A stretch of DNA of 64,000 nt from Mobula hypostoma (taxonomy: Eukaryota), in the NCBI RefSeq assembly GCF_963921235.1, contig NC_086108.1:37388001-37452000 (forward strand), read 5' to 3'. Below are positions 1 through 7,090 of the stretch, piece after piece (position 1 is the first letter of the stretch; each line of letters begins with the position of its first letter). Under the pieces are notes generated by a model. That model had not been told where the DNA came from and did no database searches. It saw nothing but the letters and a program-made list of their open reading frames with translations. Both the position numbers and the translations under genes were made by a program.

Positions 1-514
1 TTCATCCCTCAGGGGCATGAACACTGGAATCCAGCCCATTTCTCAAGTCACTTTGTAAAACCTACCACTGACTCAGCTTTATCTGAACCTTTTTTTACAA
101 GGCTCATTGATAAATTGTATTTATGAAGTAACATGGATATGATTACCATGTTACAGATGTTCTATTTTATATACACACACTATTATTGACATAGTGCAGA
201 CAAATTTGACAAGGTAATGACAAATACTCTGAATTTTTCCTGAGCTTCAGTTTGCATAGTTCTTTAATTTCCATTTGTACTGATGATTTTAGCCTTGAGC
301 ATGATTTTCTTGATTTTCAAGGACTTACAATGCTTTTTAGTGATGTGACCTTAATTTTCTTGGAACTTACAATGAAATAAATATTTCGTGTCAGCACAAA
401 ACTGGAAATGTATTTAAATGGAACACCTACTGCATCCCATTGTGTGAGATTTGCTATTCATTTGCTAGGATACCATCTATTTGGCTGTGATTTGTTCAGA
501 TCTGTATAGAGTTA

Positions 515-1330
515 AAAAATACACATGGACTAAGATGGTAACTGTCCTGTGCTATCACCAGTGGGATCATCAGTTGATTTGCCACCTGTCTTCAGGAGTT
601 TCAGCCCGCTTATGGTCAAGACTCCCTCGAGGTGGTGGGCCAGCAGTGCTAAAGCACCACCTCCCACCGGTGAGCTTAAAAACTTGGCATCTGCCTCTAT
701 CAGAGTTGTTGGTCACTTCCATCCAATAGAGAGTCTGCTCTTCAGGTGTCTATGCAACTACTGAAGGGTTTGCAAGATATGTATACACTGTCTGACTATC
801 TGCCCCTCTGGACATACTTGGTCCACACCCATGCTGGTCCTTTCTCTGCTGCCTCAGCTACAGCCCTGCTGGTTGACTTGATCTCTCTTCTAGTGAAGTC
901 AAGGTCATGCAGCCACTTCTGGAGAGTGAACACAATAAACCCACGGCAGCCTACTTCGAATGGATAGCATGAGACCTTCCACCCTCTGTCTCTGCACTCT
1001 GGTCTTAATTCTGCATACTTGGTTAACTTGCGCTCATGGGCTTCATCGATGTTGTCTTCCCAGGAGACTGTGAGTTCACCAATAACCACTTCTCTACTGG
1101 TGTCAGACCATACGATAACATCTGGATGCAATGTGGTGATAGCTATTTGCTCCGGGAAACAGCCTTTCCCATCCAGGTCGGCCTTGACACACCAATCATT
1201 GGCTGATGAAAGTATGCTTGATCGTGAGCCTGTGCTGTACACCCTTGACTTGGAGCCTTCTTTCACAAATGATATGCGATGTTCTGTGCAGCATAGTTAA
1301 AACTAAAGTGGAGGCTTTCTAACACGCTGA
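515..1330 (-). mobile_element. 5'-truncated restriction-like-endonuclease (RLE) non-LTR retrotransposon, HERO/NeSL-type: C-terminal RLE domain plus 3' UTR
   Basis: ORF 796-1266(-) has the PD-(D/E)xK-type RLE signature HPDVIVWSDTSREVVIGELTVSWE...ERKLTKY...PFEVGCRGF. Outer boundaries are approximate. Confidence 0.8.
561..635 (-). ncRNA. Candidate rearranged (non-circularly permuted) hammerhead ribozyme with a kink-turn, in the RLE element 3' UTR
   Basis: Minus strand reads CCACCU-CGA-GGGAGUC-UUGA-ccauaa-gcgggcu-GAAACUCCU-GAA-GA-C-AGGUGG-caaa-UCAA-CUGAUGA-ucccac. All three hammerhead core strands and their pairings are visible by eye. Confidence 0.55.
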
Positions 1331-1461
1331 GCATGAAGACTCACTATTAGCTACAGACCTTCAGCAGTTACTAAATTAAGTTTATGAAATGCGCATTAAC
1401 TAAAGAATCACATCAAACGAAGTTTGTCAAAACATTTGGTATGAAGTTTATTTGTTTATTT

Positions 1462-1703
1462 ATTGAGCTACAGCGCGGAATAGGCCTTTGAGCTACGCCA
1501 CCCAGCAAATCCCACAATTTAATGCTAGCCTAATCAGGAGACAGTTTACAATAACCAATTAACCTACCAACTGGTATCTCTTTGGACTGTGAGAGAAATC
1601 CAGAGCACCTAGACGAAACCTACGTGGTCATGGGGAGAAGATACAAACCCCTTACAGACAACAGCAGGTTGCTGGTAACGTAATGCCTTGTGCTTACCAC
1701 TAT
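1462..1703 (-). mobile_element. V-SINE/HE1-like SINE remnant
   Basis: Reverse complement contains the V-domain-like core gtctgtaaggggtttgtatcttctccccatgaccacgtaggtttcgtctaggtgctctggatttctctcacagtcc. Confidence 0.65.
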
Positions 1704-1719
1704 ACTATTAGATCAGAAG

Positions 1720-4700
1720 ACCGTAAGACATAGGAGCAGATTAGGCCATTTGGCCCATTGAGTCTGCTCCACCATTCAATCATAGCTGATACCTTTTGTC
1801 CTCTCCTCAACCCCATTTCCCCGTTTTCTCCCTGTAACCTATAATGCCATGTCCAATCAAGAACCTATTAATCTCTGCCTTAAAAACACCCAATGACCTG
1901 GCCTCCACAGCTGCATGTACTAACAAATTCCACAAATTCACCACTCTCTGGCTAAAGAAATTTCTCCGCATCTCTGTTTTAATTTGACACCCCCTATCCT
2001 GAGGCTATGCCCCCTTATCAAGGATGGGAGCTCAACGTTCAGGGATATTCAATATTCAATATTCAGGAGGGATAGACATGAAAGAAAAGGAGGTGGGCTG
2101 GCGTTGCTGGTTAAAGAGGAGATTAACGCAATAGAAAGGAAGGACATAAGCCGGGAAGATGTGGAATCGATATGGGTAGAGCTGCGTAACACTAAGGGGC
2201 AGAAAACGCTGGTGGGAGTTGTGTACAGGCCACCTAACAGTAGTAGTGAGGTCGGAGATGGTATTAAACAGGAAATTAGAAATGTGTGCAATAAAGGAAC
2301 AGCAGTTATAATGGGTGACTTCAATCTACATGTAGATTGGGTGAACCAAATTGATAGAGGTGCTGAGGAAGAGGAATTCTTGGAATGTATGTGGGATGGT
2401 TTTTTGAACCAACATGTCGAGGAACCAACTAGAGAGCAGGCTATTCTGGACTGGGTTTTGAGCAATGAGGAAGGGTTAATTAGCAATCTTGTCGTGAGAG
2501 GCCCCTTGGGTAAGAGTGACCATAATATGGTGGAATTCTTCATTAAGATGGAGAGTGACATAGTTAATTCAGAAACAAAGGTTCTGAACTTAAAGAGGGG
2601 TAACTTTGAAGGTATGAGACGTGAATTAGCTAAGATAGAATGGCAAATGACACTTAAAGGATTGACGGTGGATATGCAATGGCAAGCATTTAAAGGTTGC
2701 ATGGATGAACTACAACAATTGTTCATCCCAGTTTGGCAAAAGAATAAATCAAGGAAGGTAGTGCACCCGTGGCTGACAAGAGAAATTAGGGATAGTATCA
2801 ATTCCAAAGAAGAAGCATACAAATTAGCCAGAGAAAGTGGCTCACCTGAGGACTGGGAGAAATTCAGAGTTCAGCAGAGGAGGACAAAGGGCTTAATTAG
2901 GAAGGGGAAAAAAGATTATGAGAGAAAACTGGCAGGGAACATAAAAACTGACTGTAAAAGCTTTTATAGATATGTAAAAAGGAAAAGACTGGTAAAGACA
3001 AATGTAGGTCCCCTACAGACAGAAACAGGTGAATTGATTATGGGGAGCAAGGACATGGCAGACCAATTGAATAATTACTTTGGTTCTGTCTTCACTAAGG
3101 AGGACAAAAATAACCTTCCAGAAATAGTAGGGGACAGAGGGTCCAGTGAGATGGAGGAACTGAGCGAAATACATGTTAGTAGGGAAGTGGTGTTAGGTAA
3201 ATTGAAGGGATTGAAGGCAGATAAATCCCCAGGGCCAGATGGTCTGCATCCTAGAGTGCTTAAGGAAGTAGCCCAAGAAATAGTGGATGCATTAGTAATA
3301 ATTTTTCAAAACTCGTTAGATTCTGGACTAGTTCCTGATGACTGGAGGGTGGCTAATGTAACCCCACTTTTTAAAAAAGGAGGGAGAGAGAAACCAGGAA
3401 ATTATAGACCAGTTAGCCGAACGTCGGTGGTGGAGAAACTGCTGGAGTCAGTTATCAAAGATGTGATAACAGTACATTTGGAAAGCGGTGAAATCATCGG
3501 ACAAAGTCAGCATGGATTTGTGAAAGGAAAATCATGTCTGACGAATCTCACAGAATTTTTTGAGGATGTAACTAGTAGAGTGGATAGGGGAGAACCAGTG
3601 GATGTGGTATATTTGGATTTTCAAAAGGCTTTTGACAAGGTCCCACACAGGAGATTAGTGTGCAAACTTAAAGCACACGGTATTGGGGGTAAGGTATTGA
3701 TGTGGATAGAGAATTGGTTAGCAGACAGGAAGCAAAGAGTGGGAATAAACGGGACCTTTTCAGAATGGCAGGCGGTGACTAGTGGGGTACCGCAAGGCTC
3801 AGTGCTGGGACCCCAGTTGTTTACAATATATATTAATGACTTGGATGAGGGAATTAAATGCAGCATCTCCAAGTTTGCAGATGACACGAAGCTGGGTGGC
3901 AGTGTTAGCTGTGAGGAGGATGCTAAAAGGATGCAGAGTGACTTGGATAGGTTGGGTGAGTGGGCAAATTTATGGCAGATGCAATTTAATGTGGATAAGT
4001 GTGAAGTTATCCACTTTGGTGGCAAAAATAGGAAAACAGATTATTATCTGAATGGTGGCCGATTAGGAAAAGGGGAGGTGCAACGAGACCTGGGTGTCAT
4101 TGTACACCAGTCATTGAAAGTGGACATGCATGTACAGCAGGCGGTGAAAAAGGCGAATGGTATGCTGGCATTTATAGCGAGAGGATTCGAGTACAGGAGC
4201 AGGGAGGTACTACTGCAGTTGTACAAGGCCTTGGTGAGACCACACCTGGAGTATTGTGTGCAGTTTTGGTCCCCTAATCTGAGGAAAGACATCCTTGCCA
4301 TAGAGGGAGTACAAAGAAGGTTCACCAGATTGATTCCTGGGATGGCAGGACTTTCATATGAAGAAAGACTGGATGAACTGGGCTTGTACTCGTTGGAATT
4401 TAGAAGATTGAGGGGGGATCTGATTGAAACGTATAAAATCCTAAAGGGGTTGGACAGGCTAGATGCAAGAAGATTGTTCCCGATGTTGGGGAAGTCCAGA
4501 ACGAGGGGTCACAGTTTGAGGATAAAGGGGAAGCCTTTTAGGACCGAGATTAGGAAAAACTTCTTCACACAAAGAGTGGTGAATCTGTGGAATTCTCTGC
4601 CACAGCAAACAGTTGAGGCCAGTTCATTGGCTATATTTAAGAGGGAGTTAAATATGGCCCTTGTGGCTACAGGGATCAGGGGGTATGGAGGGAAGGCTGG

Positions 4701-7090
4701 GGCAGGGTTCTGAGTTGGATGATCAGCCATGATCATAATAAATGGCGGTGCAGGCTCGAAGGGCCAAATGGCCTACTCCTGCACCTATTTTCTATGTTTC
4801 TATGTTTCTATGTCCGAGACTCCCCCACCGTGGAAACATCCTTACCTCACCTACTCTGTCTAGGCCTTTCAATATTAGAAAGTTTTCAATGAAATCCCCC
4901 TCATCCTTCTGAATTCCAGCGAGTACAGACCCAGAGCTATCAAACGTTCTTCGTATGATAACCCTTTCATTCCTGGAATCATCTTCGTGAATCTCCTCTG
5001 GACCCTCTCCAATGCCAGCACATCTTTTCTCAGATGAGGAGCCCAAAACTCTGCACAGTACTCAAGGTAAGGCCTCACCAGTGCCTTATAAAGCCTTAGT
5101 ATCACATCACTGCTCTTGTATTCAAGACCTTTTGAAATGAATGCTAACATTGCATTTGCCTTCCTCACCACTGACTCATCCTGCAAGTTAACCTTTAGGG
5201 TCTTCTGCGCAAGGACTCCCAAATCCCCTTGCATCTCAGAATTTTGGCTTTTCCCCCTGTTGAGAAAATATCTGTACATTTATTTTTGCTACCAAAGTAT
5301 ATGACCATGCATTTTCCAACATTGTATTTCATTCTTATCCATTCCCTAATCTGTCTAAGTCCTTCTGCAGCCTACCTGCCCCTCCACCAATCTTCGTATC
5401 ATCTGCAAACCTGGCAACAAAGCCATCTATTCCCTCATCTAAATCATTGATATACAGCATAAAAAGAAATGTTCCCAACATCTCCCCTGCAGAACACCAC
5501 TAGTCACTGGCAACCAACCAGAAAATGATCCTTTTATTTCCACTCGCTGCCTCCTACCAATCAGCCAATGCTCTAACCATGTTAGTAACTTTCCTGTAAT
5601 ACCATGGGCTCTTAACTTGGTAAGCAGCCTCATGTGTGACACCTTGTCAAAGGCCTTCTGGAAGTCCAAATATACAACATCCATTGAATCCTCTTTATCT
5701 ATCCTACTTATAATCTCCTCCAAGAATTCCAACAGATTCATCAAGCAAGATTTTCACTTAAGGAAACCATGCTGACTTTGTCCTATCTTGTCCTGTGTCA
5801 CCAAATACACCATAACTTCATCCTTAACAATTGACTCTAACATCTTCCCAACCACTGATGTCAGGCCAACTTGTCTATAGTTTCCTTTCTGCTGCCTTCC
5901 TCCTTTCTTAAATAGTGGAGTGACATTTGCATTTTTCCAGTCCGCTGGCATCATGCCAGAGTCCAATGATTTTTGAAAGATCATTACTAATGCCTCCACA
6001 ATCTCTACTGCTATTTCTTTCAGAACCCTAGGGTTCAGTTCATCTTGTCCAGATGACTTATGCACCCTTAGGTCTTTCAGCTTTTTGAGCACCTTCTCCC
6101 TTGTAATAGTAACTGCACTCACTTCTCTTCCTTCACAAACTACAACAACTGGCATATTGCTAGTGTCTTCCACAGTGAAGATTGATGCAAGATACTCATG
6201 TAGTTCATCTGCCATCTCATTGCCCCATTACTATTTCTCCAGCTTCATTTTCTCATGGTCCTATATCCACTCTTGTCTCTCTTTCATTTTTACATACTTG
6301 AAAAAGCTTTTACTATCCACTTTGATAATGCTTGCTTGCTTACTTTCATATTTCATCTTTTCCCTTCTAATGATTCTTTTAGTTACTCTTTGTAGGTTTT
6401 TAAATGCTTCCCAATCCTTTATCTTCCCATTAATTTTTGCTTTGTTGTATGCCCTTTCTTTTGCTTTTACATTAGATTTGTCTTCCCTTATCAGTCACAG
6501 TTATAATATTTTGCCATTTGTGTATTTCTTCATTTTTGGAATACCTCTATCCTGCACCTTCCTCATTTTTCCCAGAAATTCACACCATTTCTGCTCTGCT
6601 GTCATCCCTGCCAGTATCTCCTTCCGGTTTACTTTAGCCAACACCTCTTCTCATACCACTGTAATTTCCTTTACTCCACTGAAATATTGCTACATCAGTC
6701 TTTACTTTCTCCCTATCAAATTTCAAGTTGAATTCAATCACATGGTGATCACTGCCTCCTAAGGGTTCTTTTATCTTAAGCTCCCTGATCACTATTTATC
6801 ACCCATATTACCTGTTCATTTCATATCACCCTGTCCAATATAGCTGATCCCCAAATAGGCTCAACGACAAGCTGCTCTAAAAAGCCATCTCATAGGCATT
6901 CAATAAGCTCACCTTCTCAAGAGCCATTTCCAACCAGATTTTCCCAATGGTTAAAATCTCCCATGACTATCATAACATTATTTTTGTGACTGTTGTAATC
7001 TGTGGTCCGCATCCCAGCTACAGTTGGGAGGCCTGTAGGTTTCAGCCATCAGGTTTCTTTTACCCTTGCAACTTCTTAAGTCAGCCCACA
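1720..7090 (-). mobile_element. Older degraded CR1 LINE (ORF2 EN/RT to 3' UTR), split by a younger CR1 at 2017-4811
   Basis: Frameshifted ORF2 pieces at 4875-5279, 5439-5744 (YLDFQKAFDKV) and 5754-6215. The 3' portion continues at 1720-2016 (...gctatgccccctt | gtccgagactccccc...). Confidence 0.9.
2017..4811 (+). mobile_element. Young 5'-truncated CR1 LINE with uninterrupted ORF2 (partial APE endonuclease + RT) and (TTTCTATG)n tail
   Basis: Open frame to 4713 with GDFN and SDHN (EN), YLDFQKAFDKV, GVPQGSVLGP and FADD (RT), followed by a 3' UTR and the tail ttttctatgtttctatgtttctatg. Confidence 0.95.

Follow-up and report, generated by a model that had tools for sequence, protein, structure and literature searches.

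Permuted hammerheads and the elements that carry ribozymes

In the parts of Eckert et al. (PMC10085705) consulted, the hammerhead is split into three blocks, S, G and C, none of which is assumed to be interruptible, and one of the rearranged forms, type SGC (HRIMA-1 and its variants), was validated from metatranscriptome contigs (supplementary note 1). The fold considered here lies on the minus strand of a 64,000-nt stretch of Mobula hypostoma DNA (the window). As far as those parts of the source describe type SGC, the two share the order of cleavage strand, GAAA strand and CUGANGA, all the core letters, a short linker between stems I and II, and an extra helix that joins the other ends of these two stems, here called IIIb. 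They differ in block C, which in type SGC runs intact from CUGAUGA(U)G into the stem II strand. Here, block C is interrupted, the 5′ strand of stem II being detached from CUGANGA and coming first, and two helices are inserted where the SGC descriptor permits one extra U. Moreover, IIIb is tied to stem III by both of its strands, via a kink-turn (k-turn) or a bulge, and the present fold comes from a retrotransposon, whereas type SGC comes from metatranscriptome contigs. The window fails the published SGC descriptor because that descriptor needs a G after CUGAUGA or after one extra U.

The arrangement is not that of types I, II or III either, which are circularly permuted forms of one three-way junction matched by Rfam; no Rfam hammerhead match was obtained at E ≤ 10 in window positions 1–6000. 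Hammerheads with additional helices have been attributed to Weinberg et al. 2015 in a sentence of PMC13725137 and, as far as that citing sentence goes, they resemble the present fold in having extra helices on a hammerhead core. In the literature covered, no description was found of this strand order, of a hammerhead in such elements or of a circular HERO RNA; Repbase reports, subscription journals and bioRxiv supplements lay outside its scope, Weinberg et al. 2015 entered through the citing sentence, and the supplement of Eckert et al. was mostly searched by term. In particular, neither the strand wiring nor a hammerhead in such elements is described in the parts consulted of PMC13725137, PMC3088659, PMC6765202, PMC6155905, PMC10162972, PMC4640811 and PMC7650587.

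Several retroelements offer parallels, drawn here from the portions of each source that we consulted. Penelope-like elements start reverse transcription internally and leave partial-tandem copies (PMC11167929). They resemble the present element in these copies, in a hammerhead within the terminal repeat and in the internal start that we propose below (PMC11167929, PMC6765202); they differ in having GIY-YIG where this element has a reverse transcriptase (RT) with a restriction-like endonuclease (RLE), and in hammerheads of minimal type I, whereas six helices in a pseudoknotted order are found here. In retrozymes, circles are produced by hammerheads (10.64898/2026.07.22.740005). The likeness lies in our proposed cycle, in which two hammerheads would release a unit RNA that is circularised and reinserted, but retrozymes are non-coding and carry type I or III hammerheads, whereas here the element is autonomous and its unit measures about 3.86 kb. 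Finally, R2 and other non-LTR elements with HDV-like ribozymes (PMC7650587, PMC6765202) also carry a self-cleaving-type motif for the processing of co-transcripts, and an RLE-type non-LTR host is common to the R2-like elements and the HERO-like element. In the R2-like elements, however, the ribozyme is HDV-like and stands at the 5′ end, whereas here a hammerhead follows the ORF and the copies are terminally redundant.

The host element and the layout of the fold

The host is a HERO-like RLE non-LTR retrotransposon, of which the window contains a 5′-truncated copy of 787 nt at 508..1294 (minus). Position 1294 was rejected as a fixed 5′ boundary of the element; other copies extend further upstream. 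The copy retains the C-terminal 166 aa of the ORF, the restriction-like endonuclease region (796..1296, minus; PD..E..K motif recognised by eye), with the stop codon at 798-796, and the hammerhead-type motif lies 120–240 nt 3′ of the stop, in the 3′ UTR. Longer copies in the same genome have one ORF with an RT (Pfam RVT_1) and a weak zf-RVT match, followed after the RT by CCHC knuckle and restriction-like endonuclease motifs that were identified by eye; the full unit is likewise found elsewhere in the genome. HERO-like is a provisional label for this element, which presumably belongs to the HERO clade. The nearest named proteins to its ORF are unannotated proteins of lancelet, echinoderm and fish. 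The element is high-copy in its genome, with 1,986 occurrences of the tail motif (about one tenth of them LTR family), and a search of the genome with a diverged protein gave top matches resembling the same family. A different, largely intact LINE lies 630 nt from the HERO-like copy; its open reading frame at 1924-4713 (+) encodes 929 aa that include apurinic-endonuclease and RT domains.

The motif spans 673-555 on the minus strand. The limits of 561..635 given in the initial annotation were too narrow and missed the 5′ strand of a helix, P0. From 5′ to 3′, the strand order is P0, PA, stem II 5′ strand, IIIb, cleavage strand, GAAA strand, IIIb′, CUGANGA and P0′. The P0 5′ strand (662..673) forms 12 bp with the P0 3′ strand (555..566), and hairpin PA (642..661; 8 bp and a 4-nt loop) is flush between P0 and stem II. 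The stem II 5′ strand (637..641) begins with G641, which corresponds to G10.1, and is followed by the IIIb 5′ strand (630..635) and by the non-bulged strand of the k-turn (627..629; 3n C629, 2n G628, 1n A627). Block S (614..626) comprises the stem III 5′ strand (626-621), C17 at 620 and the stem I 5′ strand (619-614); the predicted cut falls after C620, i.e., at 620|619. Block G (594..607) comprises the stem II 3′ strand (607-603), GAAA (602-599) and the stem III 3′ strand. Next come the bulged strand of the k-turn and the IIIb 3′ strand (582..593; bulge 593-591, G590, A589, C588, IIIb′ 587-582), the stem I 3′ strand (579-574) with CUGAUGA (573-567; together 567..579), the P0 3′ strand immediately 3′ of A9, and a tail (508..554) reaching to the end of integrated copies, which falls at 505-518 in 98 of 100 sampled places.

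The cleavage strand (626-616), the GAAA strand (609-594) and the CUGAUGA strand (577-561) thus stand on the minus strand where they had been annotated, and the letters of stem III, of stem I and of the helix beyond the GA/GA loop are present as described there. In the window copy the core is intact, but it has a G.U at 10.1-11.1, and stem I is shortened to 4 bp because of private changes at 615 and 579. Position 603 is U in this copy and C in 70 of 87 copies, and the whole core is kept in 42 of 82 sampled copies.

Two LTR families (G000 L210-L221, L252, L253 and ten of L222-L323) have at their end a copy of the element's tail, matching window 598-516 and beginning immediately after GAAA. One has LTRs of about 850 nt, and SCAN and zinc-knuckle domains are encoded by the opposite strand of one internal region, whose family is presumably Gypsy-like. 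A6 of CUGAUGA is replaced in both families, by a different letter in each, and one is also without the P0 strand.

Conservation, stem II and the opened core

Relatives were collected by protein alignment and comprise 80 metagenome loci and three contigs filed under prokaryote genomes, 83 foreign loci in all; a search of viral contigs for relatives found none. The three contigs (L177-L179), RLE retrotransposon relatives filed under bacterial metagenome-assembled genomes, are probably eukaryotic contamination. GAAA followed by CUGANGA occurs in the 3′ UTR of 34 of the 83 foreign loci. A blind descriptor for the S-G-C core matched 33 of the 83 foreign 3′ UTRs versus 0 of 1,520 dinucleotide shuffles; it matched none of the antisense UTRs, one of 83 other sense stretches (177,387 nt) and none on the antisense strands of the latter. 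Within the window, it has a single match, on the minus strand (GAAA at 602); the plus strand has no match. The hammerhead core is far beyond chance. Against these same relatives, Rfam 15 gave no family match at E ≤ 1 in the 20 foreign loci searched.

In a quick protein tree, from which L175 was left out for its short protein match, all 34 motif-bearing rows (33 foreign loci and the element's own family) fall within one branch of 56 rows (SH-aLRT 95), and the motif is present in none of the 27 rows outside it. The branch also contains 22 motif-free rows. Twelve of them have too little 3′ sequence; among the ten with enough, L123, L138 and L149 look decayed by eye, and the other seven are unexplained or broken.

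Pairing was compared with controls in which partners were swapped. For the 18 clusters used (core identity below 75%; two of the 20 were left out), stem I is paired at 98% versus 51% swapped, stem III at 94% versus 60%, stem II at 99% versus 67%, PA at 98% versus 51% and P0 at 91% versus 47% (each 0/2,000), percentages that lean upward because registers were picked to maximise pairing; the blind descriptor and an unguided MAFFT alignment are the fairer tests. IIIb, evaluated over 20 clusters and subject to the same upward lean, is paired at 99% versus 56%, has 4–11 bp in all 20, and begins 0–1 nt after the stem II 5′ strand in 19 of them; the linker from stem I to stem II is a few nt. Covariation is present in all six helices. 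Of the stems first annotated, I and III are kept, and the core strands are conserved. Folding of 545-665 alone gives a z of only -0.62 because the 5′ strand of P0 is absent from that segment; with this strand included, z is -3.17.

A different result was obtained for the stem II that had been annotated, which paired 609-605 with 565-561. In the unguided MAFFT alignment of 30 sequences, that helix is paired at 48.6% versus 46.9% when shuffled, with 141 of 500 shuffles as high, and it has been abandoned. As 641-638 with 606-603, stem II is paired at 85.0% versus 69.8% (0/500), with 16 cells changed on both sides. G641, GAAA and CUGA.GA are invariant in the same alignment. By the blind descriptor, the partner of the strand 5′ of GAAA lies some 20 nt before the cleavage triplet. 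This helix reaches 4 bp or more in 29 of 33 loci, versus 772 of 3,300 by chance (upstream region shuffled); a canonical downstream stem II occurs in one of 33 loci, or in 12 of 33 if nine loose registers are allowed. G10.1-C11.1 is G-C in 18/18 clusters, a count that leaves out two clusters lacking the pair. Four loci (L098, L099, L100 and L101) have no upstream G10.1, a C or U opposite C11.1, and a G after CUGAUGA; they look as if the downstream strand supplied G10.1, with the remainder of stem II still upstream.

In a hammerhead, A9 is followed within 0–2 nt by a strand of stem II. Here, P0 and PA are inserted instead: the strand after CUGAUGA forms the long helix P0, so two extra helices stand flush between A9 and G10.1. 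The gaps from A9 to P0, from P0 to PA and from PA to stem II are all 0 nt in 24 of 31 loci (three loci of unclear register were left out), and the blind test recognises the full junction in 25 of 33 loci versus 84 of 3,300 in a null where shuffling is confined to the upstream 92 nt. We infer that the chain has been opened between A9 and G10.1, at the point where type SGC tolerates one extra U, and that stem II, the G12/A13-A9/G8 stack, P0 and PA would meet in a perfect four-way junction. IIIb appears to be the counterpart of helix “I” of type SGC; since it replaces that helix, the fold would be type SGC in circularly permuted form, with the opening inside block C.

The consensus k-turn consists of a C-helix, a 3-nt bulge, tandem G.A and A.G pairs and an NC helix. 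The full signature is found in the window and in 13 of the 34 foreign loci (7 of 20 clusters), compared with 208 of 10,000 shuffled loops, always in the same orientation, with stem III as the C-helix and the bulge on the GAAA strand. Six more loci keep three of the four k-turn letters (L175 is a locus of this kind), and in 13 of 20 clusters a bulge, a loop or an incomplete k-turn signature occupies the same place. Thus, the k-turn annotated beyond stem III is complete in the family of the window and in 7 of 20 clusters, and the proposal needs to be relaxed in that the signature is not obligatory. What is conserved, as these sequences read, is a bend, of which the k-turn is one way of forming.

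Free variation at N7, an H17 that is never G, and an otherwise fixed core are the constraint pattern of an active hammerhead. Among the 34 foreign loci, H17 is A in 16, C in 11, U in 7 and never G, although the annotating script left this letter unconstrained; N7 takes all four letters, and 11.1 is C in 33 of 34. CUGANGA, GAAA and UH are thus all in place, and this catalytic signature is kept while the proteins of the relatives diverge to 33–69% identity. Taken together, we are nearly certain that this is a real and deeply conserved hammerhead-type fold in an arrangement that we have not found described. Its non-circularly permuted, pseudoknotted character and its host, an RLE non-LTR retrotransposon with the fold in its 3′ UTR, were both claimed at the outset and are supported, as is the predicted cut after C620, and the pattern of constraint makes it quite probable that the fold cuts itself. 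If this is true, it is a new hammerhead architecture out of reach of the published permutation searches, which could not find it because they assumed CUGANGA and stem II to be inseparable, and non-circular permutations move from environmental contigs to animal-type genomes with thousands of copies.

Element ends, the two tails and the template

The initial annotation had the cut make the 3′ end of the element, and the copies contradict this. For a length-unbiased sample, we took the first 100 exact matches to the tail along one contig; 10 of them were LTR family (9 by another rule). The predicted cut is spanned by 87 of the 90 non-LTR copies, and integrated copies end about 112 nt downstream of it. 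There is no pile-up of 5′ ends at the cut (0 of 100 unbiased places start at 600-630) and no significant excess of scars, with three deletions nearby versus 1.6 expected; one indel was counted at 623-617 in 249 copies. The 3′ flanks of ordinary copies have no consensus beyond one or two letters.

What precedes the start of the element is more telling. In 39 of 40 cases, the sequence directly before the start is the tail of the element itself, and the junction is fixed; in full-length copies the letters of the tail continue unbroken into the 5′ UTR. The extra piece before the start ranges from 12 nt to about 1.7 kb; 19 such pieces reach back past the cut, and 17 carry a whole second ribozyme motif. 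No complete tandem dimer occurs among the 40 starts within the stretch fetched. Looked at from the tails, an element start follows in 0 of 91 unbiased tails and in 2 of 30 in the first sample. The same tail-to-start junction is seen, with the ORF N-terminus following, in 2 of 18 foreign motif-bearing loci with at least 250 nt downstream. Both ends are present in 36 copies, and in these the number of non-majority letters common to the two tails is 76 versus a permuted mean of 25.7 (0/3,000); the tails of one copy differ by 4.2% versus 5.3%. This is the terminal redundancy, with both repeats from one template, that a circular RNA would leave. Given the junctions and the shared rare letters, the template must have continued without a break through the apparent end and through the cut alike. 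Because full-length copies extend beyond their own start in head-to-tail order, it is likely that the RNA was self-cut and likely that it was rejoined into a circle; the rare letters common to both tails suggest a circular template, and a circle would be the simplest account of the contiguity.

We propose the following cycle. Transcription that reads through a two-ribozyme copy would give an RNA that is cut twice, which would release a unit-length RNA. The k-turn or bulge would bend IIIb back towards stems I and II, and the RNA ends would be held together by the pairing of P0, II, IIIb and III, 29 bp in the Mobula hypostoma family, which would favour ligation. Closure of the unit RNA at 620|619 would give a circle, on which the protein of the element would start target-primed reverse transcription at about 508, inside the RNA, and copying round the circle past the element's own start would regenerate the upstream ribozyme. 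By our estimate, the distance from the far end of stem III to those of stems I and II seems long for a bridge of the size of IIIb, and the same puzzle of bridging length was raised for type SGC by Eckert et al. (PMC10085705, in the part consulted).

On present evidence we lean towards this mechanism as a whole, i.e., the predicted cut, rejoining of the unit RNA and reverse transcription from an internal start. For the broadest statement we would put the chances about even: that a clade of autonomous, protein-coding LINE-type retrotransposons replicates via a circular RNA made by its own active hammerhead, with a core assembled from four strands at a perfect four-way junction, a permutation that is not among the six considered possible, and that the k-turn in part of the clade may allow control of cutting and rejoining by a protein. 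If so, a branch of RLE non-LTR elements, assumed to copy linear RNA from its 3′ end, uses an internally primed cycle like that of Penelope-like elements and retrozymes, which would be relevant to R2-like elements and ribozyme-made circles as tools.

The circle has to be weighed against a linear template on which the fold also cuts. Cleavage would then trim or silence read-through RNA, as a brake on retrotransposition, and the redundancy would come from uncut partial-tandem transcripts or from the RT jumping between RNA ends held by the ribozyme. The RT of R2 performs end-to-end template jumping, which lends this some plausibility. So do two full-length copies, L354 and L355 (G000:C50 and C40), whose 5′ flank is common over 900/900 nt at 95.8% and contains the end of another open reading frame, while their 3′ flanks differ; this fits a linear, uncut read-through template at least once. 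The extra pieces point the same way: 20 of 39 stop within 94 nt of the junction, so that half end before reaching the cut, and four stop at 601-602 and none at 603-648, stops and a gap that do not fit a simple circle. Further counts against the circle are the lack of a 5′-end pile-up or scars and the discordance of the two tails at position 525 in 15 of 34 copies (11 C/T at CpG, 4 A/C). Nevertheless, a linear template does not readily account for junctions that are fixed and seamless at both 508|start and 620|619, for rare letters common to the two tails, or for extra pieces of up to 1.7 kb without complete dimers, which linear inheritance would erode. We consider it possible, if rather doubtful.

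The remaining alternatives are weaker. The fold might no longer cut and serve as a scaffold, bound by the protein of the element or by a k-turn binder of the 15.5K/Snu13 type, that positions reverse transcription; the intact cut site across nearly all sampled copies and the lack of significant scars are what such a role would leave. The constraint, however, has the catalytic pattern, with an invariant core, a free N7 and an H17 that avoids only G over the whole range of protein divergence, and the two LTR families with the tail alone have both lost A6, all of which makes a scaffold unlikely. It is very improbable that, as the earlier model had it, the element carries a regular type-SGC hammerhead whose stem II uses the strand that follows CUGAUGA and whose cut makes the 3′ end. 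The S-G-C order, a chance 4/5 pairing in the element's own family and a G directly after CUGAUGA in 8 of 34 foreign loci would suit such a model, but its stem II is at chance level in the relatives, the CUGAUGA(U)G required by published SGC descriptors is absent from the window, and the copies continue well beyond the cut. Equally hard to credit is the notion that independent insertion of truncated copies, with the start of the element itself as their target, produced the head-to-tail junctions and that the ribozyme has no part in them. Some HERO families are reported to be microsatellite-specific (in the part consulted of PMC4640811), but nearly every start would require a second insertion of its own, the 3′ flanks of ordinary copies lack a consensus, and the two tails of a single copy have rare letters in common. 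The circular template thus remains the reading that we prefer.

Some copies are shortened internally. L360, L361, L366, L370, L380 and L384 are terminally redundant with large internal deletions, four of them with the first breakpoint at 705-763 of the unit, and it is possible that they are non-autonomous derivatives.

In eight foreign loci (L113, L116, L119, L122, L128, L132, L134 and L136), sequences like the A-box and B-box of a tRNA were noticed by eye between the end of the ORF and the ribozyme, close to the 5′ side of the latter. ARAGORN found no tRNA gene in 14 loci, including five of these eight. Seven of the eight lie in one branch, in L116 the B-box coincides with the P0 5′ strand, and these boxes are possibly a promoter within the terminal repeat.
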